In this document: positions 8,828-38,364 of the stretch, one piece after another | Position numbering within the stretch: position 1 is the first letter of the stretch | How the letters are laid out: every line of letters begins with the position of its first letter | Notes under the pieces: generated by a model | Seen by the model: the letters and a program-made list of their open reading frames with translations, nothing else | Database searches by the model: none | Told to the model about the DNA's origin: nothing | Position numbers and translations under genes: made by a program | Virus record (IMG/VR): IMGVR_UViG_2061766007_000286 | Source of the DNA: an uncultured virus (IMG/VR IMGVR_UViG_2061766007_000286) | Lineage: Duplodnaviria; Heunggongvirae; Uroviricota; Caudoviricetes | Strand: one strand, 5' to 3' | DNA: 64,000 nucleotides

Positions 8828-9867
8828 ATTAACCCCCTTTAGTTGTCGATTTCAGGCTGTTTTATCATTTTGCCGACGTCGGCAAAATGGTCTTGTTACT
8901 TGTTCTTCTTTGTGTGCCGAGCGTTCTTCTTGTTGATCACNNNNNNNNNNNNNNNNNNNNNNNNNNNNNNNNNNNNNNNNNNNNNNNNNNNNNNNNNNNN
9001 NNNNNNNNNNNNNNNNNNNNNNNNNNNNNNNNNNNNNNNNNNNNNNNNNNNNNNNNNNNNNNNNNNNNNNNNNNNNNNNNNNNNNNNNNNNNNNNNNNNN
9101 NNNNNNNNNNNNNNNNNNNNNNNNNNNNNNNNNNNNNNNNNNNNNNNNNNNNNNNNNNNNNNNNNNNNNNNNNNNNNNNNNNNNNNNNNNNNNNNNNNNN
9201 NNNNNNNNNNNNNNNNNNNNNNNNNNNNNNNNNNNNNNNNNNNNNNNNNNNNNNNNNNNNNNNNNNNNNNNNNNNNNNNNNNNNNNNNNNNNNNNNNNNN
9301 NNNNNNNNNNNNNNNNNNNNNNNNNNNNNNNNNNNNNNNNNNNNNNNNNNNNNNNNNNNNNNNNNNNNNNNNNNNNNNNNNNNNNNNNNNNNNNNNNNNN
9401 NNNNNNNNNNNNNNNNNNNNNNNNNNNNNNNNNNNNNNNNNNNNNNNNNNNNNNNNNNNNNNNNNNNNNNNNNNNNNNNNNNNNNNNNNNNNNNNNNNNN
9501 NNNNNNNNNNNNNNNNNNNNNNNNNNNNNNNNNNNNNNNNNNNNNNNNNNNNNNNNNNNNNNNNNNNNNNNNNNNNNNNNNNNNNNNNNNNNNNNNNNNN
9601 NNNNNNNNNNNNNNNNNNNNNNNNNNNNNNNNNNNNNNNNNNNNNNNNNNNNNNNNNNNNNNNNNNNNNNNNNNNNNNNNNNNNNNNNNNNNNNNNNNNN
9701 NNNNNNNNNNNNNNNNNNNNNNNNNNNNNNNNNNNNNNNNNNNNNNNNNNNNNNNNNNNNNNNNNNNNNNNNNNNNNNNNNNNNNNNNNNNNNNNNNNNN
9801 NNNNNNNNNNNNNNNNNNNNNNNNNNNNNNNNNNNNNNNNNNNNNNNNNNNNNNNNNNNNNNNNNNN

Positions 9868-9962: not shown

Positions 9963-10120
9963 GCCCCGTTAGCTCAGCTGGATAGAGCAGCGGTCTTCAA
10001 TTAGGAGCGTTCATGTGGAAGATCGAGGTGGTGGTCAAAACAAAATCCTCTCAGGAAACACATGAAATGAAACGTGCTGTATCGGAGAACATCGTAAGTG
10101 CCAACAACACACGACAACTC
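9963..10120 (+). tRNA. second allele or copy of intron-containing tRNA-Arg(UCU), truncated by gap
   Basis: same 5' exon (one substitution) and intron start as 10421; distal P2 sequence differs. Confidence 0.7.
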
Positions 10121-10420
10121 NNNNNNNNNNACCAAATGACTCAGAAGATGAACATCCGACTTGTCAACGGCAAGGTTACCACCATCGAAGTTCGTGGCGG
10201 TGCCAAGTTCCGCAACGGCGACATCGTTCGTCACCTCACCTCTCAGAAGAAGTGGGTGGTCGCCGATGCCCGTCCTGACAAGCGGCATCGCATTCATCTG
10301 ACGGCCAAGGCTGACAAGAACGAAAAGCTCCGCATCAGCCAGAACGTCATGGTGAAGGCTTAATCGACCATNNNNNNNNNNTCAGGGTGTCGGTGATCTC
10401 TTCACCGGCGCCCGTCTTTT

Positions 10421-10732
10421 GCCCCGTTAGCTCAGTTGGATAGAGCAGCGGTCTTCAATTAGGAGCGTTCATGTGGAAGATGGGATCGGTCAACGGCATG
10501 AATATCTCGTCGACAACACATGAAATGGAACGTGCTGTATCGGAGAACATCGTAAGTGCCAACAACACACGACAACTCCGAGGAAACCGAGACCAGGGAT
10601 CCGTAGAGACTATACGCACGTCGGCTGAAACGCCGAAGAAATAGTCCAGCCAGCAAGCCCGAAAGGGTGGTCATGGAAACATGATGCTGGATGCTAAACC
10701 GCTGGCCGGAGGTTCGAATCCTCCACGGGGTA
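10421..10732 (+). tRNA. tRNA-Arg(UCU) split by a group I intron (exons 10421-10455 and 10694-10732)
   Basis: joined exons give acceptor GCCCCGT/ACGGGGT, D arm GCTC/GAGC, anticodon arm GCGGT-CTTCTAA-ACCGC, T arm GGAGG-TTCGAAT-CCTCC. Confidence 0.9.
10456..10693 (+). ncRNA. group I self-splicing intron, 238 nt, no endonuclease ORF
   Basis: P1 CUU|C pairs with GGAG with a U.G at the splice site; P3 CGTGC/GCACG; GTAGAGACTA and AAGAAATAGTCC form P7; P8 TCGGC/GCCGA; terminal G. Confidence 0.88.
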
Positions 10733-19816: not shown

Positions 19817-19841
19817 AGGACTTATATACCTAGTTCCGCCA

Positions 19842-19855
19842 AAAATACTATATTA
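19842..19855 (+). promoter_or_regulatory. AAAATACTATATTA promoter for tRNA-Pro
   Basis: exact motif 10 nt upstream of the tRNA. Confidence 0.75.
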
Positions 19856-19865
19856 TAGGTATTAG

Positions 19866-19938
19866 CAGGGTGTACGCCAACCGGTAGACGGAATGTTTTG
19901 GGAACATTCAGATGAAGGTTCGAACCCTTTCACCCTGA
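19866..19938 (+). tRNA. tRNA-Pro(UGG)
   Basis: CAGGGTG/CACCCTG; AATGT-TTTGGGA-ACATT; GAAGG-TTCGAAC-CCTTT. Confidence 0.85.
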
Positions 19939-19943
19939 TAGAG

Positions 19944-20068
19944 AGGTCCGTTCCCGACGTCGTAGCTTAATAACTGTTAGAGCGCCCGTGCAATTTTGGG
20001 GATTAAAACAGGGGTTACCACTGCATGGGAGATGCGGGATAGTCCCGTCGGCGAAGGTGAACGGATTT
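19944..20068 (+). ncRNA. tRNA-like RNA with extended acceptor stem and 29-nt anticodon-position loop
   Basis: AGGTCCGTTC/GAACGGATTT; CGTCG/CGGCG; D-like TAGCTTAA...AGAGC; CCCGTGCA/TGCATGGG; GCGGG-ATAGT-CCCGT. Confidence 0.55.
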
Positions 20069-20122
20069 GGTTTTTTGGGGCACGCAAAAGATTTTTGTAT
20101 AAACCCCATGTTGGCCACTGAA

Positions 20123-20136
20123 AAAATACTATATTA
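20123..20136 (+). promoter_or_regulatory. AAAATACTATATTA promoter for the main tRNA/ncRNA operon
   Basis: exact motif; TATAAAC also present at 20098-20104. Confidence 0.75.
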
Positions 20137-20245
20137 TGGTTGTGAGGGCGACGACTCTCGATGGATGGTTGACAATCGTGTGTCTTTAGGTGCTATGCCC
20201 TATGCTTAATGCCGATGTGTGGTGACTCGGCGCCTTTCAGAATTT

Positions 20246-20399
20246 TACCCGTCGTCTACTTTTTATATCATTTTTTCCATAGACGGCGGGTGGGGTACCG
20301 GCTTTGTCTTGTTGGCCGGTACCCATCCTCTACGGGCGGTCTGCCAGTGCGTGCCATCCTCTATATGCCCTCCCTCCCAACCGCATTGGCAGACCGTCC
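20246..20399 (+). ncRNA. three abutting long hairpins with large pyrimidine-rich loops
   Basis: 13-bp (20246-20292), 10-bp (20293-20324) and 18-bp (20334-20399) stems; the first and third contain G.U pairs. Confidence 0.55.
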
Positions 20400-20495
20400 A
20401 ATCTTTTTCCCAGGTTTTAGGCCTTTCGTCATACGGCTTTTACCCAGGTTCGACTCCTGGGATGGCGATTTGAGCGCACGGCCGCCTGTGGAATT

Positions 20496-20567
20496 CACCC
20501 TGTAGCTCAAGAAGAAGAGCTTGTGCCGATTAAGCACAGGATCTTGGTGCAAATCCAGGCAGGGTGT
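20496..20567 (+). tRNA. non-canonical tRNA-like RNA (loop CG-ATT-AA)
   Basis: cloverleaf CACCCTG/CAGGGTG, GCTC/GAGC, TGTGC/GCACA, CTTGG/CCAGG; D-loop lacks GG, G at position 33, T-loop TGCAAAT. Confidence 0.6.
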
Positions 20568-20568
20568 T

Positions 20569-20639
20569 GTCCCCTCAAGCCTCTGTCAGCTGACAACTAC
20601 ATTTGCATGCGCCAACAGACATGCTAAAACGGAGGGGAC
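20569..20639 (+). ncRNA. stem-closed ~70-nt RNA with possible pseudoknot, followed by a U-tract
   Basis: GTCCCCTC/GAGGGGAC; GCATG/CATGC hairpin whose loop ACAGA can pair with TCTGT. Confidence 0.45.
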
Positions 20640-20652
20640 TTTTTTTGATACA

Positions 20653-20993
20653 TGGGGCTTGTGGCTGGTTTGCCACCGGTTGAGGTAAAAATCCTCCTGT
20701 CGTGAAGAGCCCTGGTGGAGATTGCAAGCGAAGCCAGGAAAGATAGCGACTGCTCATGCCTGTTCGTCGTAGGATGAGGTGATTCCTATCTGAGATAGTC
20801 CGGAAATATTGACAGCTAACCGCCGAGAACTATCATAGGATGGAATGTATGCCATAGCAACGTAGCCTTGGTCATGCAGCACAGAAATATCAGAGTTAGC
20901 GGCTGTGTGGAAGCCTTGTAGCGAAAGTCTGAAGACGACATGGACATGAGTTGAAATCCGTGATGAAGCAGGTTCAATTCCTGGGGTCCCACC
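20653..20993 (+). ncRNA. ~340-nt tRNA-capped RNA with tmRNA-like architecture (non-canonical)
   Basis: GGGGCTT/GGGTCCC-ACC ends; T arm CAGG-TTCAATT-CCTG with compensatory allele CTGG-TTCGATT-CCAG at about 21055; long-range helix 20753-20768/20934-20950. Confidence 0.5.
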
Positions 20994-21105
20994 CTTTTCC
21001 CGCGTAGCGTATAGCGGTTTCTAGGTCTCCGTGCACCTGTAGNNNNNNNNNNGTCTGGTTCGATTCCAGGGGTCCCGTCCTTTTCCCGCGTAGCGTATAG
21101 CGGTT

Positions 21106-21311
21106 TCTAGGTCTCCGTGCACCTGTAGCCTAGATTAACACAAAAGGTGCTCGACAATCCTAGACATCCCGCTCTGCTTAGGATTGTTCTTACACACGAG
21201 CGGGGATATCTTGGGTGACCGTGCGCATAGTCCAGGATAGATTAACAAGGCGCTCCAAACTTGGGTGTCTCTGTATATCTCACATCCAATGTTTCGACAT
21301 AGAGATATACA
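21106..21311 (+). ncRNA. array of four consecutive H-type pseudoknots
   Basis: TCTAGG/CCTAGA + GCACCT/AGGTGC; ACAATCCTA/TAGGATTGT + CCCGCTC/GAGCGGG; TATCTTGG/CCAGGATA + GCGC/GCGC; TTGGGTGT/ACATCCAA + TGTATATCTC/GAGATATACA. Confidence 0.65.
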
Positions 21312-21314
21312 CTC

Positions 21315-21386
21315 GCGCGTATCGTATAGCGGCTATTACCCCGCCCCTCCAAGGCGGAGACGCCGGTTCGATTCCGGCTACGCGCT
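21315..21386 (+). tRNA. tRNA-Gly(UCC), atypical C33
   Basis: GCGCGTA/TACGCGC; CCGCC-CCTCCAA-GGCGG; GCCGG-TTCGATT-CCGGC. Confidence 0.85.
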
Positions 21387-21398
21387 TTGACAGTTTGA

Positions 21399-21470
21399 TG
21401 CCTCATAACTCAGTGGTAGAGTGACCGGCTGTTAACCGGTTTGTCCCAGGTTCGAGCCCTGGTGAGGCAG
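21399..21470 (+). tRNA. tRNA-Asn(GUU)
   Basis: TGCCTCA/TGAGGCA; ACCGG-CTGTTAA-CCGGT. Confidence 0.9.
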
Positions 21471-21473
21471 TGC

Positions 21474-21562
21474 GAAGTCGTGATGCTCAAGTTGCTCTTC
21501 ATCTTAAGATGCGGAGCTAACAGACCAGAGGACTTGGGTGGGTGCTGGTCCCCGACGACTTC
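21474..21562 (+). ncRNA. stem-closed pseudoknotted RNA
   Basis: GAAGTCGT/ACGACTTC; TGCTCAAGTT/GACTTGGGTG; GACCAG/CTGGTC cross-pairing. Confidence 0.5.
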
Positions 21563-21572
21563 TTTCATTTGG

Positions 21573-21734
21573 GCGACCACCGAAAAACGTCGATACCATG
21601 CCGGAAACACCACATGTTTAGAGCGTGTTGCAACAGCATGGCCTCTCGGCGCTTCGTCAAGTAGCACGATAGGTGCGAGCCCTTAATCCTCCCTTCGTGG
21701 AGGCCCCTGGACCCGCAACGGGTTCGAAGGTCGC
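21573..21734 (+). ncRNA. multibranched RNA, ~160 nt
   Basis: GCGACC/GGTCGC closing stem; CCATGC/GCATGG, CCTCC/GGAGG and GGACCCG/CGGGTTC stems. Confidence 0.45.
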
Positions 21735-21808
21735 GCCCCATGTGGGGCGCGTGAGTTGAAACTGATGTAAAAGCCGAAAGGTTTTCCTATGGGTCTTGGG
21801 TGATGGTT

Positions 21809-21896
21809 TGGAATGGCAAGGGTAATGGTTTTATCTTAAAGTGGGGGTAATTCCACGCCATGAGTATCCGTTCATTGTAACGTCCTTGCCATTCCA
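21809..21896 (+). ncRNA. stem-closed small RNA
   Basis: 14-bp closing stem TGGAATGGCAAGGG/TCCTTGCCATTCCA. Confidence 0.45.
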
Positions 21897-21899
21897 TTT

Positions 21900-21984
21900 G
21901 GAAGTATGGCCGAGTGGTTTAAGGCGGAGATTTGCTAGGTCTCTGGAGGTAACACTCCCGAAGGTTCGAATCCTTCTGCTTCCT
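21900..21984 (+). tRNA. tRNA-Ser(GCU)
   Basis: GGAAGTA/TGCTTCC; GAGAT-TTGCTAG-GTCTC; long variable arm. Confidence 0.85.
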
Positions 21985-22007
21985 TTCAACGATGTATGTG
22001 ATATATC

Positions 22008-22082
22008 GGGCGATTAGCTCAGCCGGTTTAGAGCATCTGTTTTACACACAGAGGGTCACAGGTTCGAATCCCGTATTGCCCA
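22008..22082 (+). tRNA. tRNA-Val(UAC)
   Basis: GGGCGAT/ATTGCCC; TCTGT-TTTACAC-ACAGA. Confidence 0.9.
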
Positions 22083-22091
22083 TTTGAACAC

Positions 22092-22174
22092 GGAGGATTA
22101 GGCTAATTGGTAAGTCAGCGGTCTTGAAAACCGCCGTCCGAGAGGGCTTGGGGGTTCGAGTCCCTCATCCTCCG
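22092..22174 (+). tRNA. tRNA-Ser(UGA)
   Basis: GGAGGAT/ATCCTCC; GCGGT-CTTGAAA-ACCGC; long variable arm. Confidence 0.88.
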
Positions 22175-22177
22175 TTT

Positions 22178-22251
22178 GGAGCGGTAGCTCAGTTGGCTAG
22201 AGCGCTGGTCTGTCACGCCGGAGGCCACGGGTTCAAGTCCCGTCCGTTCCG
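22178..22251 (+). tRNA. tRNA-Asp(GUC)
   Basis: GGAGCGG/CCGTTCC; CTGGT-CTGTCAC-GCCGG. Confidence 0.9.
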
Positions 22252-22287
22252 TTTTGTTCTTGGGGAAACACCGGTTAGTCCCCCAAG

Positions 22288-22351
22288 GGAGCTTAGATAG
22301 GCAAGACCGACGCGACCTTGTCGACAAGCCCACGGAGGGTTTCTAAGCTCC
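22288..22351 (+). ncRNA. three-way-junction small RNA
   Basis: GGAGCTTAGA/TCTAAGCTCC; GGCAAG/CTTGTC; AGCCC/GGGTT. Confidence 0.45.
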
Positions 22352-22362
22352 TTAGAATTCAG

Positions 22363-22435
22363 AGGTCTATAGCTCAACTGGTAGAGCAGCGGTCTCCAAA
22401 ACCGCAGGTTGGAGGTTCGATTCCTTCTGGACCTG
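22363..22435 (+). tRNA. tRNA-Trp(CCA)
   Basis: AGGTCTA/TGGACCT; GCGGT-CTCCAAA-ACCGC. Confidence 0.9.
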
Positions 22436-22440
22436 GTTTA

Positions 22441-22513
22441 GGCGGCTTAGCTCAGTTGGTAGAGCAATTTCCTTGTAAGAAATAGGTCGTGTGTTCGAGA
22501 CACACAGCCGCCT
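22441..22513 (+). tRNA. tRNA-Thr(UGU), atypical body
   Basis: GGCGGCT/AGCCGCC; ATTTC-CTTGTAA-GAAAT; T arm GTGTG-TTCGAGA-CACAC. Confidence 0.82.
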
Positions 22514-22520
22514 CTAATTT

Positions 22521-22603
22521 GGGTCGGTGCCCGAGTGGCTAAAGGGGACGGACTGTAAATCCGTTGGCTTTTGTCTACGGTGGTTCGAATCCACCCCGGC
22601 CCA
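22521..22603 (+). tRNA. tRNA-Tyr(GUA)
   Basis: GGGTCGG/CCGGCCC; ACGGA-CTGTAAA-TCCGT; long variable arm. Confidence 0.9.
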
Positions 22604-22611
22604 TGAATGAA

Positions 22612-22680
22612 GACCGCTCCACTGAAACTCGGTAGCAAGTGGAGACCCGTTGGAATCGAGTTGTCGCGAACGGGTGGGTC
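22612..22680 (+). ncRNA. two-hairpin RNA with complementary (kissing) loops
   Basis: CTCCACT/AGTGGAG and ACCCGTT/AACGGGT hairpins; loops AACTCGGT and ATCGAGTT are complementary; GACC/GGTC closure. Confidence 0.55.
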
Positions 22681-22764
22681 GTTTTCCGTGACCCAGAATC
22701 AGTTGTCTAGGACAACCAAAGTCCCACCTCCAGCGTTCACTGTGTGGGGCAACGGAATACTTTT

Positions 22765-22837
22765 GCCAAAGTAGCTCAGTTGGTAGAGCAGCTGATTTGT
22801 AATCAGCCGGTCGTAGGTTCGACTCCTATCTTTGGCT
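22765..22837 (+). tRNA. tRNA-Thr(UGU)
   Basis: GCCAAAG/CTTTGGC; GCTGA-TTTGTAA-TCAGC. Confidence 0.9.
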
Positions 22838-22849
22838 TTTAACGATCTT

Positions 22850-22951
22850 TCCACTTCCGCCACGGATGCTGGTGGTATAGATGGGTAGGGCGCCCTGTCC
22901 CATTTAGTCGCGGTGATTCCCAGAGCTCTGGAGTTTACGAAGCGAGGTGGA
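22850..22951 (+). ncRNA. multibranched small RNA at the operon end
   Basis: TCCACTTC/GAGGTGGA closure; TAGATGGG/CCCATTTA inner stem. Confidence 0.4.
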
Positions 22952-22978
22952 TACAAGTTTTTCTTAATTCGGCGCCGA

Positions 22979-22992
22979 AAAATACTATATTA
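22979..22992 (+). promoter_or_regulatory. AAAATACTATATTA promoter for tRNA-Ile2 and tilS
   Basis: exact motif 8 nt upstream of the tRNA. Confidence 0.75.
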
Positions 22993-23000
22993 AGAATACT

Positions 23001-23074
23001 GGGACGATAGCTCAGTCGGTTAGAGCCCCCGACTCATAATCGGATGGTCGCCGGTTCAAGCCCGGCTCGTCCCA
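23001..23074 (+). tRNA. tRNA with CAU anticodon, most likely tRNA-Ile2 (lysidine)
   Basis: G1-C72, no three consecutive G-C pairs in the anticodon stem (not initiator), C29-G41 and C5-G68; 47 nt upstream of tilS. Confidence 0.8.
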
Positions 23075-23121
23075 CTACCATTTAACCGGTCGCAAGACCA
23101 ATTGAACGAGAAGGCACACGA

Positions 23122-24111
23122 ATGCGAGATCTCAGCCAGATCCTCGACAGCTCCATCGAGACCATCAATGGAAAATCCATTCTCATCGCGGTCTCCGGTG
23201 GAGCTGATTCCATGTTCCTGGCATGCGCACTCATCGAACTGCGCAACTCGCTCGACCTCAAGTTGGCAATCGCTTCCGTAGACCACTCCCTCAGGGAGGA
23301 ATCCGCGGAAGAACTAGCCTTCGTCCACGACTTCTCCATCGCCAATAAAGTTCCATTCTTCTCAGCCAAGCTCGTCCTTCCCAAGAACATGCCCAATGGC
23401 ATCGAAGCATGGGCACGGGAAGAACGATACAAGGAGCTGGAACGCATGCGCGCAGAATCCGGATGCGACTGGATCGCCACCGCCCATCACAGGAACGACC
23501 AGGCGGAGACCATCATGTTCAAGCTCGGCCGCGGCACCGGCGCCACCGGTCTAATGGGCATCCACGAGATCGACCAGACGCGCCATATCATCCGTCCAAT
23601 CATCAACTGCGATCCGAGGGAGATGCGCGAATACCTGCGCAGCCGCGGCCAGGAATGGCGAGAGGACCCCAGCAACCAGGACACCAAGTATTCGAGAAAC
23701 GAGATCAGGCACGAGCTTCTCCCGAAGTGGGAGTCCATGGAGCCTGGTATCACCGACGAACTCGTCCAGCTTGCCAACAAGGCGAACTCGATTATCCCAA
23801 AAATCTCAAATTGGGCGAAGAACATCTACAGGTTCGAAGAGACCGACCGTGGTTATTCTATCTCTCTCAGCCAGAGTGACATTGCCGAAGACGACGGATC
23901 GCTTCTCAGAATCGCAATGGACGACGTGTGGGGGAAGATGAACGTCGGATACCCCGGGAACAAAAGGTGGAGCCGCATCATCGATTGCGTCGTGAAGAAC
24001 AAGCGCTACTGCGAAGAGATCTCCAGCGGTGTCCGTGTGTGGGTCCGAAGCAGACACAACTCCCCGGTATTGTCCGTCGAAAGGATTGAAGGCGCGCCCC
24101 GCAAAAAATAA
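23122..24111 (+). CDS. tilS: tRNA(Ile)-lysidine synthetase
   Basis: AVSGGADS PP-loop, VDHSLR, AREERY, TAHHRNDQAET, IIRP, EDPSN, RNEIRH. Confidence 0.93.
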   Translation: MRDLSQILDSSIETINGKSILIAVSGGADSMFLACALIELRNSLDLKLAIASVDHSLREESAEELAFVHDFSIANKVPFFSAKLVLPKNMPNGIEAWAREERYKELERMRAESGCDWIATAHHRNDQAETIMFKLGRGTGATGLMGIHEIDQTRHIIRPIINCDPREMREYLRSRGQEWREDPSNQDTKYSRNEIRHELLPKWESMEPGITDELVQLANKANSIIPKISNWAKNIYRFEETDRGYSISLSQSDIAEDDGSLLRIAMDDVWGKMNVGYPGNKRWSRIIDCVVKNKRYCEEISSGVRVWVRSRHNSPVLSVERIEGAPRKK

Positions 24112-25332: not shown

Positions 25333-25608
25333 ATGCTCTATCGAAACACCAAAGAAATACTCAGAGAGATCCTCTACCACCCGACGCAGTACAAGGAGTT
25401 CGGGGCAATGGAGAGACTCACCGAGAAAGAACTCGCCTATGTGGTGCGATACAGGTTCGGTTCGTCATACATGACAGGAAGAAAAGTCGCTCACGTGTTG
25501 TTGCACGAGGATCCGATGGAGTTCATCAACAGGCATTTCCAGAGACGGAAACACAAGGACGATCCGAACAGGAACGCATTGCTGCTTCGAGTAGACGACG
25601 ACGAATAA
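25333..25608 (+). CDS. hypothetical protein
   Basis: ORF directly after TATAAAC at 25316-25322. Confidence 0.5.
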   Translation: MLYRNTKEILREILYHPTQYKEFGAMERLTEKELAYVVRYRFGSSYMTGRKVAHVLLHEDPMEFINRHFQRRKHKDDPNRNALLLRVDDDE

Positions 25609-25980
25609 AGTGTCCATGAATTGGGAACGGCGCGCTCCCAAAAATACTATATTACTGTATGGGGAGACGGTTGAAGCGGAAGTTCCGCCAGGTCGTCTCT
25701 GCACAACNNNNNNNNNNCTCGTCATACATGACAGGAAGAAAAGTCGCTCACGTATTGCTGCACGAAGATCCGATGGAGTTCATCAACAGGCATTTCCAGA
25801 GACGGAAACACAAGGACGATCCGAACAGAAACGCATTGCTGCTTCGAGTAGGCGACGACGAATAAAGTGTCCATGATTTGGGAACGGCGCGCTCCCAAAA
25901 ATACTATATTACTTTATGGGGAGACGGTTGAAGCGGAAGTTCCGCCAGGTCGTCTCTGCACAACGTAAAGGTAAAGTATT

Positions 25981-26265
25981 ATGGACATGAATATCGAAGT
26001 TCTAAACATCACTCCAGTCGAAAACATGGGCAAGACCCTGGCATTCTGCAAGATCAAGGTCGGCCCGTTTACTCTCTGCAGCTGTCCTCTGATCGACGGC
26101 GAACACGGCCTGTGGGTCGCGATGCCGGCTCACAACAGGAAGGCCAAGAAGAACTACAACGGAGGCAAGATCTACGAGCCTCTGGTGTGGGTTGAAGACG
26201 ACCTCCGCGAAGACATCCGTCTTGCCGTCGTCGACAAGTGGGAAAAGGAGTTCGCTGGGAGATAA
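25981..26265 (+). CDS. spoVG: SpoVG family protein
   Basis: IEVLNITPV...LAFCKI...LIDGEHGLWVAMP...YEPLV...IRLAVVDKW. Confidence 0.75.
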   Translation: MDMNIEVLNITPVENMGKTLAFCKIKVGPFTLCSCPLIDGEHGLWVAMPAHNRKAKKNYNGGKIYEPLVWVEDDLREDIRLAVVDKWEKEFAGR

Positions 26266-26302
26266 TTCCCAGCGACTTCTTTGCAAGAGGAGTGACTTAA
26301 AG

Positions 26303-27124
26303 ATGTCCAGTGAATTCCATGACCCCGTATACATGGCGTATGAAAACACTCTGAAGTCGCAGTCGATCGAACTGACGGACTCCCAGATGAACATGTATGC
26401 CGAAATGGCTCACAACGGAGACCCCGTCGCAAAGGAGGTCCTGTACAGAGCTTTCTATCGGTATATCATCTACCAGGCCGGTACCTTCAAGTCTGATGTG
26501 GTAAGCGTCACGGACATGATCACTCATGGAATTCTAGGACTGGACAAGGCGATCCAGATGATGGATCCGAAAGACACCCACGCGTTCCGGCAATATGCGA
26601 TCAACTACATCACGGGGTTCATGTACAAGGGGTTCAACCGCGAACACAACATGATCTACGTATCCGGGTATACCAAGTCCGCCGCGAAACGAGCAATCGA
26701 CGAAGAGGGGAAGGACGGACACGACCTCAACGTCAGGTACGCCCTTTTCCAGAACAACATGAGAGTGTCCATCGACGAAAACGGCAGATACGACAAGAGG
26801 GAAGGCAGATCTGGCGACGACGATGGCATCTACAAGGAGCTCGAAGACGAGTCGTACAATGTGGATACCAGTGCCGAAGAGCTGATCAACCGCACCCTGG
26901 CCAAGCTCCCGGACGATGAATACAGGTACCTGGTGAAGGCCTCGTTCGGCATCATGGGGGAACTCAAAAGGACCAAGGAGGAGCTGGTCGCCGAGGGGCA
27001 CAGGTTGTCGCACATTGGAAAGGCGCGCATGATGTTCGCCAGCAAGATGCGCAACGACCCGAAATATAGGCACCTTGATACGAAATCCGAGGGTCTTGGG
27101 AAGACTTTAAAAGCGCACAAGTGA
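26303..27124 (+). CDS. divergent sigma70-like factor
   Basis: AHNGDPVAKEVL...DMITHGILGLDKAIQMMDP...FRQYAINYI (region 2); region 4 degenerate; GAGGAG SD. Confidence 0.7.
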   Translation: MSSEFHDPVYMAYENTLKSQSIELTDSQMNMYAEMAHNGDPVAKEVLYRAFYRYIIYQAGTFKSDVVSVTDMITHGILGLDKAIQMMDPKDTHAFRQYAINYITGFMYKGFNREHNMIYVSGYTKSAAKRAIDEEGKDGHDLNVRYALFQNNMRVSIDENGRYDKREGRSGDDDGIYKELEDESYNVDTSAEELINRTLAKLPDDEYRYLVKASFGIMGELKRTKEELVAEGHRLSHIGKARMMFASKMRNDPKYRHLDTKSEGLGKTLKAHK

Positions 27125-36311: not shown

Positions 36312-36914
36312 CTCAGTCCTCCTTCTTCTTTTTCATGTTGCGTTCATAAGCCAGCATGTCTTTCCTTGTCCGCCCAATCATACGCAGACAAGTCGCAACG
36401 TTCTCCAGTGCAATATCCATCGTTTTGTAGTCAGCACGGCTGGCGTTGGAACCAAAACCTCTTGCGGCATCTTGCAACCACCCGTTTGCGTTTGCAAGAC
36501 TTCTCTGCAAATCCTTTCTAAAATCATGAATAGCACTCATCTTTCAGTTCTCCTTATTGAGATCGATATTCGGCGGGGCATCCCCGGTCCGTTCCACGAT
36601 GAACTGTCCCTGGAACGACTTGTATACCTTCTTTCCGTTCTTGTCCAGAACAAACGTCGCCATCATCGAACTAGCGTTCTTGCTGGTGAAGATGACCTTC
36701 CAATCAACGACATTCCTCAGAACAGCGATCGGTTCCCCGGACATCGAATAAATTTTCACAATGTTCATTTCTCAGTTCTCCTTCTTCATCTTCAGAGTAA
36801 GTTCCTTCAGCTGCGCCATGACCTTCGCCTTCGACTTCCTGTCCAATCTCATCTTTCGCATTTCAGTTCTCCTTTTTGAACGCCCTCTGGATATAATATA
36901 GTATTTTCCGCGCC

Positions 36915-36980
36915 AAAAAGAAAAGGGACCCTGGATGTGGCTCCGGGTCCCGCTAGGTCAGGAGATATATGGATAACAAC
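36915..36980 (-). ncRNA. putative small RNA 1 (antisense to SD+AUG) with its own promoter and terminator
   Basis: promoter 36986-36999; body GTTGTTATCCATATATCTCCTGACC; GGGACCC/GGGTCCC hairpin plus TTTTCTTTTT. Confidence 0.6.
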
Positions 36981-37006
36981 ACTCTTAATATAGTATTTTC
37001 CCTGGC

Positions 37007-37072
37007 AAAAGAAAAGGGACCCTGGATGTGGCTCCGGGTCCCGTTAGGTCAGGAGATAATATGAATAGCAAC
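37007..37072 (-). ncRNA. putative small RNA 2
   Basis: promoter 37078-37091; body GTTGCTATTCATATTATCTCCTGACC; same terminator. Confidence 0.6.
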
Positions 37073-37133
37073 ACTCTTAATATAGTATTTTCCACGGCCG
37101 AAAGTAAAAGAAAACCCCNNNNNNNNNNCCCGT

Positions 37134-37190
37134 AAAGAAAAGGGACCTGGAAAAACCAGGTCCCGTAAGGACAGGAGCATACATTATGAT
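37134..37190 (-). ncRNA. putative small RNA 3 (divergent, possibly allelic to RNA 2)
   Basis: promoter 37196-37209; body ATCATAATGTATGCTCCTGTCC; GGGACCTGG/CCAGGTCCC plus U-tract. Confidence 0.55.
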
Positions 37191-38364
37191 GTCTATAATA
37201 TAGTATTTTCCACGGCCGAAAGTAAAAGAAAACCCCCTAGCTGGTNNNNNNNNNNAGCATGCTTTTCCTTGTCCGTCCAATCAGACGCAGACAAGTCGCA
37301 ACGTTCTCCAGTGCAATATCCATCGTTTTGTAGTCAGCACGGCAGGCACTGGAACCAAAACCTCTTGCGGCATCTTGCAACCACCCATTTGCGTTTGCAA
37401 GACTTCTCTGCATATCCTTTCTAAAATCATGAATAGCACTCATCTTTCAGTTCTCCTTATTGANNNNNNNNNNCGATATTGTATGACATCTCAGTCCTCC
37501 TTCTTCTTTTTCATGTTGCGTTCATAAGCCNNNNNNNNNNNNNNNNNNNNNNNNNNNNNNNNNNNNNNNNNNNNNNNNNNNNNNNNNNNNNNNNNNNNNN
37601 NNNNNNNNNNNNNNNNNNNNNNNNNNNNNNNNNNNNNNNNNNNNNNNNNNNNNNNNNNNNNNNNNNNNNNNNNNNNNNNNNNNNNNNNNNNNNNNNNNNN
37701 NNNNNNNNNNNNNNNNNNNNNNNNNNNNNNNNNNNNNNNNNNNNNNNNNNNNNNNNNNNNNNNNNNNNNNNNNNNNNNNNNNNNNNNNNNNNNNNNNNNN
37801 NNNNNNNNNNNNNNNNNNNNNNNNNNNNNNNNNNNNNNNNNNNNNNNNNNNNNNNNNNNNNNNNNNNNNNNNNNNNNNNNNNNNNNNNNNNNNNNNNNNN
37901 NNNNNNNNNNNNNNNNNNNNNNNNNNNNNNNNNNNNNNNNNNNNNNNNNNNNNNNNNNNNNNNNNNNNNNNNNNNNNNNNNNNNNNNNNNNNNNNNNNNN
38001 NNNNNNNNNNNNNNNNNNNNNNNNNNNNNNNNNNNNNNNNNNNNNNNNNNNNNNNNNNNNNNNNNNNNNNNNNNNNNNNNNNNNNNNNNNNNNNNNNNNN
38101 NNNNNNNNNNNNNNNNNNNNNNNNNNNNNNNNNNNNNNNNNNNNNNNNNNNNNNNNNNNNNNNNNNNNNNNNNNNNNNNNNNNNNNNNNNNNNNNNNNNN
38201 NNNNNNNNNNNNNNNNNNGTTTGGCCTTTTGACAGTCTTTTGACAATGTTTTGATTGGTTTTTGTTGGTTTTCACATNNNNNNNNNNTCCACCCACTTGT
38301 TAAGGATCTCTTAAAAACTCTTTAAAACATCCCGTTATAAACAAATTCCAGGGAGGGATGCAAC

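Follow-up and report, generated by a model that had tools for sequence, protein, structure and literature searches.

The window analysed here, the 64,000 nucleotides (64 kb) of the uncultured virus record IMGVR_UViG_2061766007_000286, contains at positions 19842–23075 of the plus strand a phage tRNA operon, with a phage promoter motif at three sites, in which tRNA genes alternate with non-coding elements that mostly fold into structures of their own (elements 1 to 15, Table 1). The open reading frames (ORFs) of the window include a family B DNA polymerase, RadC, a SprT-like protein, a sigma-factor-like protein and a TilS-like protein, and the window has the appearance of a segment of a large phage genome. 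The 13-nt motif AAATACTATATTA occurs 28 times in the window at no more than two mismatches, against 0.42 copies expected, is always co-oriented with the genes and usually lies 20–40 nt upstream of a start codon. We regard it as a phage promoter that probably represents the main promoter class. Three copies fall within the array (P1 to P3), which therefore comprises at least three transcription units; a scan for consensus promoters and terminators gave nothing decisive.

ARAGORN called 13 plus-strand tRNAs between 19866 and 23075, and Rfam reported 12 in the region at the gathering score. The initial annotation of this DNA had counted 11; the canonical number is 12, and the thirteenth ARAGORN call (20496–20567) is one of the elements that the annotation itself had set apart, element 5. 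The comparison with Rfam that it had proposed yielded no non-tRNA family above threshold, either in the region or across the 64-kb window, and weaker matches (YrlA, plastid untranslated regions, microRNAs) all lay on real tRNAs or were judged to be chance.

Table 1. Features of the tRNA operon and of the adjoining gene, in window coordinates (z, z score of the folding energy; L081 and L084, related metagenomic contigs)
Feature	Coordinates	Strand	Description or basis
Promoter motif P1, AAATACTATATTA	19843–19855	+	Directly 5' of tRNA-Pro
tRNA-Pro(UGG)	19866–19938	+	ARAGORN and Rfam
Element 1	19944–20068	+	125-nt four-way-junction RNA; long closing stem, tRNA-like D-arm sequence, then U-run
Promoter motif P2	20124–20136	+	Motif scan
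Element 2	20143–20239	+	97-nt 5' leader of the P2 transcript; 97/97 positions identical in L081 and L084
Element 3	20246–20399	+	Three strong hairpins in series; z −9.3
Element 4	20409–20468	+	'Minihelix' of acceptor stem and T-arm; stem read from sequence
Element 5	20496–20567	+	Aberrant tRNA-shaped RNA; ARAGORN tRNA-Asn(ATT), absent from the Rfam tRNA list
Element 6	20569–20646	+	abiF-RNA-like hairpin with extended apical arm; 8-bp G+C closing stem and U7
Element 7	20653–20993	+	340-nt RNA; 7-bp acceptor-like stem and T-arm at the ends, body of about 270 nt
Assembly artefact	20971–21128		Two 72-nt near-duplicates around the 10-N run 21043–21052
tRNA-Gly-like fragment (5' acceptor strand and D-arm)	21086–21103	+	Read from sequence; tRNA-Gly about 210 nt downstream
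Element 8 core	21127–21311	+	Stem B, hairpin H, invariant 3' hairpin
tRNA-Gly(UCC), tRNA-Asn(GUU)	21315–21470	+	ARAGORN and Rfam
Element 9	21474–21562	+	89 nt; 8-bp closing stem
Element 10	21573–21734	+	162 nt; 6-bp closing stem, z −2.2; then G+C hairpin 21733–21752
Element 11	21809–21896	+	88-nt hairpin; perfect 13-bp terminal stem, z −4.8
tRNA-Ser(GCU), tRNA-Val(UAC), tRNA-Ser(UGA), tRNA-Asp(GUC)	21900–22252	+	ARAGORN and Rfam
7-bp hairpin	22259–22287	+	Read from sequence; absent from the initial annotation
Element 12	22288–22351	+	10-bp closing stem, z −3.4; spacer S6 z −2.6
tRNA-Trp(CCA), tRNA-Thr(UGU), tRNA-Tyr(GUA)	22363–22604	+	ARAGORN and Rfam
Element 13	22612–22680	+	Terminal closing stem
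Element 14	22684–22757	+	Terminal closing stem
Second tRNA-Thr(UGU)	22765–22837	+	ARAGORN and Rfam; whole-unit presence/absence
Element 15	22850–22951	+	102 nt; 8-bp closing stem; z −2.45 plus, 0.0 minus strand
Promoter motif P3	22980–22992	+	Motif scan
tRNA with anticodon CAU	23001–23075	+	ARAGORN and Rfam
TilS-like gene (tRNA(Ile)-lysidine synthetase-like)	23122–24111	+	Pfam PF01171 (PP-loop), E 1.6e-51

The spacers between the tRNAs are more structured than coding sequence of the same window. Eleven of the 15 elements (1, 5, 6, 7 and 9–15) pair their own 5' and 3' ends in the minimum-energy fold, in agreement with the initial claim that most are closed by a terminal stem; elements 2, 3 and 8 are hairpin series, and element 4 is closed from an internal position. 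Since the limits of the elements had been drawn by eye, eight whole spacers were folded as well, bounded by tRNAs, promoters and the N gap and independent of those limits. Their plus-strand z scores (−3.3, −4.8, +0.4, −1.7, −2.3, −2.6, −1.8 and −1.75; seven of eight negative, mean −2.2) indicate greater stability than was found for 33 coding segments of 185 nt (mean −0.29, standard deviation 1.04, none below −2.5; Mann–Whitney p 0.001). Together with the Rfam and ARAGORN results, these folds confirm the observation of structured spacer elements within a tRNA operon. The preference for the plus strand that had been read from G·U pairs is clear only for elements 1 (z −3.3 on the plus and −1.4 on the minus strand), 3 and 15 and for spacers S1 and S8; for elements 5 and 6 the minus strand gives the better fold. 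Comparison of the modules with one another revealed no sequence families.

The elements had also been described as free of ORFs, which is not literally so: ORFs of 55–98 aa overlap the spacers on both strands, as would be expected if some spacers encoded small proteins. However, none of the nine such ORFs that were scanned matched a family (20209–20505 against PHROGs and Pfam, the eight others against PHROGs), and in relatives ORFs 20209–20505 and 19988–20209 contain frameshifting indels of 1–2 nt. No coding signal was found, and we consider a protein-coding role of the spacers scarcely credible.

Relatives of the array were found in metagenomes. Viral contigs searched with TilS, the upstream 270-aa ORF and PolB contained no close relative, and an exact 22-mer of element 1 had no match in them; a TilS alignment search of genome and viral contigs returned only distant TilS proteins of at most 39% identity. 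Two pattern searches of the viral contigs were set aside as chance, one combining the promoter with a T-loop (40 loci with one motif copy each) and one using a 16-nt loop of element 8 (three matches). Among 50,697 phage records, blastn of the array matched tRNAs only (best 25 of 1712 records), and 19939–21042, which holds elements 1–7, had no match. Metagenomes yielded TilS homologues of 93, 82 and 80% identity and four more distant ones of 41–44%, and a metagenome scan for two promoter motifs 240–270 nt apart gave 23 loci, two of which are true relatives by blastn, the contigs L081 (4459 bp) and L084 (4303 bp), both spanning 16.6–21.47 kb of the window. The other 21 loci are unrelated, several of them being tandem repeats that carry the motif. 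According to a run index, the stretch is present in animal-gut runs from 11 studies, mostly labelled bovine gut, and contigs were compared from the DNA runs X6, X7 and X8 and the RNA run X20, with X6 and X8 variants taken among the differences listed. The alignment of the window with L081 and L084 covers elements 1–6 and 8, the left half of the array.

Comparison with these contigs shows units that are gained and lost whole. Element 7 is absent from L081 and L084 and present in X6–X8, and L084 has an extra closed module of 144 nt between elements 4 and 5. The slot after tRNA-Asn, occupied by element 9 in the window, is filled in L084 by another closed module, which a U-run follows, and L081 shows the first bases of that alternative before the contig ends. 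In X8, 173 other letters span tRNA-Asn and the element 9 slot, and 7 letters stand in place of element 11; the second tRNA-Thr is represented by 11 letters in both X6 and X8. As units are present, absent or swapped whole among the relatives, tRNAs and non-tRNA modules turn over alike, unit by unit. The modules of L084 that the window lacks are the 144-nt insertion (L084 629–772, minus strand) and a module of about 90 nt (L084 26–125, minus strand) that has a closing stem of 8 bp, a U-run and the T-loop-like GGGTTCAACTCCC; Rfam and the tRNA model described below matched neither of the two.

Insertion and deletion of units would also be seen if the closed modules were mobile DNA resembling miniature inverted-repeat transposable elements, with terminal stems that represent inverted repeats of the DNA and not RNA structure. 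Element 11, whose perfect 13-bp terminal inverted repeat is cleanly missing in one run, fits this view, as do the several elements that fold equally on both strands. However, no module recurs elsewhere in the 64 kb, and neither element 11 nor the L084 insertion is bordered by a visible target-site duplication; moreover, the substitutions in element 3 keep pairing only in the plus-strand RNA, and folding of elements 1 and 15 is likewise confined to that strand. A mobile-DNA origin of the modules is accordingly very improbable in our estimate.

Several modules are conserved beyond the level of the neighbouring genes. The flanking ORFs differ from the relatives at 7.7–10% of third codon positions and at 3% of first and second positions, while elements 1, 2 and 4 (281 nt) carry no substitution relative to L081 or L084 (P ≤ 2e-4 even at the first/second-position rate). 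Element 1 has a single indel in L084 and one loop substitution in X6 and X8, and element 4 is identical in both relatives at 59 of 59 positions. In contrast, tRNA-Pro(UGG) differs at 30 (L081) and 31 (L084) of about 73 aligned columns, its anticodon being unchanged, and the sequence downstream of it is identical in L081 and L084. Elements 3, 5 and 6 show 7 and 9, 2 and 10, and 1 and 3 differences from L081 and L084, respectively; because they vary, the whole block does not derive from one recent transfer. Among the differences listed for X6 and X8 between 19944 and 20655, eight of ten fall in linkers, which make up 19% of the bases (p 5e-5).

Where substitutions occur, pairing is often retained. 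The search for covariation in homologues, which had been suggested as a check, was positive for element 8, the best case in the array, within the three aligned sequences. Its stem B (21154–21163/21177–21187) shows two compensatory pairs and one inserted pair, and in the nine pairs of hairpin H (21207–21215/21231–21239) all 27 cells are paired and none is broken, with three compensatory and two one-sided changes below an invariant 15-nt loop (21216–21230). In a control in which the partners were slid by 1–3 columns, 30–44% of the cells paired, and the L081 and L084 copies, folded separately, adopt the same two helices. In element 3, whose third hairpin has an invariant C/U-rich loop of 30 nt, five of 42 pairs vary, each on one side; all five keep pairing through G–U on the plus strand only, and none is compensatory. 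With three sequences, this wobble pattern is suggestive only (about 0.03 by a coin-flip argument). C/U-rich hairpin loops often pair with ribosome-binding sites in small RNAs of Gram-positive bacteria. In the right half of the array, the closing pair of element 13 is changed on both sides in X6 (22612 G>A, 22680 C>T) and only at 22612 in X8, and element 15 is about 20% diverged relative to the contigs of X6 and X8 (23 and 25 letters in 113).

Three modules resemble tRNA in whole or in part. A tRNA covariance model (R1), derived from nine window tRNAs and three from relatives, matched element 5 over its full length and, by the T-arm only, element 4 and the 3' end of element 7; elsewhere in the spacers it gave no match below E = 0.9, and element 1 is not tRNA-like by this model. 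The earlier statement that none of the elements belongs to a named family requires correction for these three and also for element 6, whose likeness to abiF RNA stays below the Rfam threshold. Judged by its R1 score (42.2 bits), element 5 appears to be a tRNA homologue. It has G33 for U33 (anticodon loop CGAUUAA), the T-loop UGCAAAU and the D-loop AAGAAGAA without GG, and hence none of the invariant tRNA features U33, U54-U55-C56 of the T-loop and G18-G19. At the 'anticodon' the window and L081 have AUU, L084 has ACC, and a role in decoding appears unlikely. Element 4 (13.5 bits, E 0.004) consists of a 7-bp stem (20426–20432/20462–20468) and a T-arm (20444–20460), with neither D-arm nor anticodon arm.

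Element 7 runs into an artefact of the assembly. The segments 20971–21042 and 21057–21128, on either side of one of the many 10-N runs of the window, are 94% identical, and relatives have a single copy; the flanks of the gap are two alleles of one locus joined by an assembly overlap, and about 86 bases are artefactual and not biology. Between the alleles, the T-stem of element 7 shows a compensatory A–U to U–A change, read from the sequence. The tRNA-Gly-like fragment in this stretch is present in the window and L081, absent from L084 and likely a recombination scar. Two contigs of the RNA run X20 lie on element 7 (20676–20937, with five differences in 262, and 20677–20759), which is the only non-tRNA part of the array found in the metatranscriptome; the non-tRNA parts of 19840–20609 and 20940–21929 are uncovered. 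These contigs show neither RNA ends nor strand, and the uncovered parts inform only the contrast with element 7, which argues against carry-over of DNA and for selective accumulation of this RNA.

The architecture of element 7, an acceptor-like 7-bp stem and T-arm supported by the compensatory change between the alleles, together with the RNA contigs covering its body, raises the alternative of a phage tmRNA or of a tRNA gene split by a self-splicing intron. ARAGORN at an 80% threshold indeed calls a non-permuted tmRNA at 20654–20993 with the tag AENYHRMECMP. At this threshold, however, several overlapping spurious calls appear as well; at the default threshold no tmRNA is called, and with introns allowed there is no call at element 7. 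The Rfam tmRNA and group I intron models gave no match at E values up to 10 when the 371 bases were scanned alone, whereas RF00023 found the tmRNA in four of four Firmicute genomes at 136–173 bits. Element 7 is 35–40% identical to these four tmRNAs, which share 49–73% among themselves, and it has neither their 5' nor their 3' end motif. Its acceptor G–U pair lies at position 4 and not at position 3, contrary to the G3–U70 pair of tmRNA, and its sole candidate tag has no hydrophobic end, unlike the three ARAGORN-called Firmicute tags, which end in VA or AA. As covariance models, end motifs, G3–U70 and tag all fail, we do not file element 7 as a tmRNA, and we rate this alternative, including its intron form, as quite improbable.

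Element 6 provides the only match outside tRNA that merits attention, and the one lead towards a decoy. Its closing stem and U7 look like the intrinsic terminator of the P2 unit, and within the hairpin the Rfam model of abiF RNA, RF03085, matches on the correct strand (20571–20637 of 20569–20639). The L084 copy scores 31.0 bits, below the gathering score of 37, with an E value of 0.0095 for the locus. It has all conserved letters (CAAGCCUCU ... GCUCAAA) and an outer stem with two compensatory changes relative to the consensus, and the window and L081 copies read GCUAAAA instead of GCUCAAA. Independently of the model, an outer stem, the A bulge and an inner AGC/GCU stem also emerge from the minimum-energy fold. 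The abiF-motif RNA is described as binding and neutralising the AbiF (Abi_2) toxin (PMC12373285), and an abiF RNA motif is annotated in the cyanophage S-CREM1 (PMC9964418). No Abi_2 domain was found among the 70 ORFs of the window of at least 100 aa that were scanned with Pfam. On sequence and fold, we consider the resemblance of element 6 to the abiF antitoxin RNA a lead, not an identification; an orphan antitoxin-like RNA in a lytic-looking phage is, by analogy, what a pseudo-antitoxin would look like.

Modules and tRNAs have the same kind of trailer. TTT follows within 7 nt of ten of the 15 elements (p 2e-7) and of five of the 12 tRNAs (p 0.004), against a background of 0.099 of array positions, and a U-rich trailer common to both fits release by tRNA-processing enzymes. 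In this respect the proposal that the array acts as a processing platform is plausible. CCA is encoded by none of the 12 array tRNAs, and tRNAs without an encoded CCA need an endonucleolytic cut at the 3' end and RNase P at the 5' end.

Based on these observations, we propose the following hypothetical scheme, in which (i) transcription from the three phage promoters would yield RNAs made up of 12 canonical CCA-less tRNAs and, interspersed with them, at least 12 autonomous non-coding modules; (ii) host RNase P and RNase Z or RNase E would release the modules, guided by their base-paired termini and by the trailer that they share with the tRNAs; (iii) the modules would form a cargo in which some units stay unchanged, some drift with pairing kept, and whole units are gained, lost or exchanged among related phages, one class comprising presumably non-decoding tRNA derivatives (elements 5, 4 and 7) and another non-tRNA folds (elements 1, 3, 8 and 9–15), with the abiF-like hairpin of element 6 also ending the P2 unit; and (iv) the released RNAs would act in trans on host factors, element 6 by neutralising an AbiF (Abi_2, HEPN) abortive-infection toxin and the tRNA-shaped modules by mimicry directed at factors that bind or cut tRNA. 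The likeliest role of such RNAs would be in taking over the host or countering its defences through RNA mimicry.

The same spacers may instead serve the array in cis, as hairpins for processing, insulation or termination, mixed with decaying duplicate tRNAs and recombination scars, in which case any released RNA would be functionless. Element 5, with one compensatory and three broken pairs in the relatives and an altered 'anticodon', resembles a decaying tRNA copy or pseudogene; element 4 holds a duplicated T-arm strand, the tRNA-Gly 5' fragment at 21086–21103 is in keeping with recombination, elements 1 and 6 end in a terminator-shaped stem followed by a U-run, and unequal recombination in an array would predict the turnover of whole units, tRNAs included. 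However, elements 1, 2 and 4 are more conserved than the first and second codon positions of their neighbours and far more than the tRNAs that they would serve, element 8 has its invariant 15-nt loop on top of a covarying stem, element 7 is 340 nt long and seen in RNA, and the sizes of the modules far exceed what a processing hairpin requires. We therefore regard a purely cis-acting or decaying origin as unlikely, albeit the foremost of the alternatives considered here.

Several results weigh against the modules being a cargo of functional RNAs. The pairing changes of element 5 just described are one of them. Elements 2 (z −0.4, with no predicted structure) and 7 (z +0.4) have no excess folding energy, for several elements the minus strand folds as well as the plus strand or better, the closing stems were picked by eye although short inverted repeats are common by chance, and elements 9–15 rest on folding energy and contig indels. 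The stretch 19944–20245 is nearly uniform including its 74-nt linker (three and one differences), and a recently exchanged block could explain part of its conservation. For element 6, the window copy scores 13.5 bits and has A for a conserved C, the abiF match stays below the gathering score with an apical insertion of 38 nt where the model has 7, and its E value is about 0.15 when scaled to all sequence scanned. Finally, processing into discrete RNAs is inferred.

Weighing these points, we are confident that the modules are real, constrained structured RNA units. On their processing into discrete RNAs we are evenly divided, and that they act in counter-defence is doubtful, though conceivable. 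Of the initial interpretation as a library of effectors or decoys, the part that holds concerns discrete non-coding folding units that behave as cassettes, some of them constrained or covarying; the decoy library is unproven and has a single lead in element 6. The statement as a whole, namely that a phage tRNA operon also carries accessory small RNAs with a counter-defence role by RNA mimicry, seems to us about evenly balanced between right and wrong. A more far-reaching version is that of an RNA 'counter-defence island' of swappable decoys, with an orphan abiF pseudo-antitoxin, non-decoding tRNA mimics that sequester defence nucleases directed at tRNA, and other mimics, exchanged by cassette like clustered protein anti-defence genes; it is speculative and, in our judgement, rather improbable.

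Phage tRNA clusters are usually read as codon supply or tRNA replacement and their spacers ignored, whereas here the spacers are the best-conserved part of the locus, with covarying structure and cassette turnover. This points to a general route by which many phage small RNAs could be made from one operon by the tRNA-processing enzymes of the host. Should even one module prove to be a tRNA decoy or a pseudo-antitoxin, the array would represent the RNA counterpart of the protein anti-defence islands, and a search rule would follow, namely to look for closed modules with tRNA-like punctuation inside phage tRNA arrays.

Some features of the tRNAs and promoters stand apart from the spacer modules. 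A promoter copy of its own precedes the tRNA with anticodon CAU, and a TilS-like gene lies directly 3' of this tRNA (23001–24111); because this gene adjoins, the tRNA is probably tRNA-Ile2, and the phage seems to carry both tRNA-Ile2 and the enzyme that makes its lysidine. tRNA-Pro is about 40% diverged across three relatives that are 93–96% identical elsewhere, and tRNA-Asn(GUU) (21399–21470) is likewise far more diverged than its surroundings, either by swapping or under diversifying pressure. Outside the operon, weak plus-strand matches to the phage tRNA model at 9963–10030, 10421–10487 and 10703–10724 (14–16 bits, E 0.01–0.05) adjoin a 927-N stretch (8941–9867), and a second tRNA-like cluster, degenerate or masked, may lie around 9963–10724. 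Further copies of the promoter motif occur, for example, at 281, 2805, 16617, 25642, 25899, 46301, 47058 and 61172; at 281 and 2805, TTGACA lies 17 nt 5' of the TATATT within AAATACTATATTA. A sigma-factor-like gene is located at 26192–27124, and at 25600–25960 nearly identical repeats of about 80 nt (25612–25694 and 25869–25951) contain two promoter copies spaced by 257 nt. On the minus strand, 36894–37250 contains four promoter copies spaced 92–118 nt, interrupted by two N runs; three of the four each precede a roughly 65-nt RNA with a terminal G+C hairpin and U-run, so that the locus looks like tandem small RNA genes, each with its own promoter and terminator.

Among known systems, the nearest arrangement is the pair of small stable RNAs of phage T4. 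Species 1 and 2 (RNA C and RNA D) are reportedly stable non-tRNA RNAs from the T4 tRNA cluster, transcribed together with the tRNAs and freed by the enzymes that process tRNA; we know of no function assigned to them so far. As in T4, structured non-tRNA RNAs are encoded here between tRNA genes, with which they share strand and transcription units, but T4 has two such RNAs and the present array at least a dozen unrelated modules that turn over like cassettes. Comparison with the phage records by blastn gave no sequence relation to T4 among the matches listed. Like tmRNA (RF00023), element 7 encloses a long body between a tRNA-like acceptor stem and T-arm. Phage PhiTE is said to encode pseudo-ToxI, an RNA that mimics an RNA antitoxin and allows escape from abortive infection, and which arose in escape mutants; it is a precedent for the mechanism proposed for element 6, although it concerns another toxin–antitoxin family, ToxIN.

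The large structured RNAs GOLLD and ROOL frequently occur close to tRNAs and in prophages, and ROOL was first seen in data from the cow rumen (PMC5737381). Neither was found here by Rfam, and the modules of the array, of 60–340 nt, are mutually unrelated. With the abiF RNA (RF03085), element 6 shares the two-stem base, the downstream U-run and, as in S-CREM1, the location in a phage; it differs in being a single copy, where RCd22 has two motifs, and in lying inside a tRNA operon, with no Abi_2 gene found. Literature on the abiF motif and on non-coding RNAs of phage tRNA arrays described no such cassette array or abiF-type decoy among the matches listed. Compared with the known systems, what sets this operon apart is the number and diversity of its modules, their exchange as cassettes, their conservation above that of the tRNAs, and a possible antitoxin mimic.

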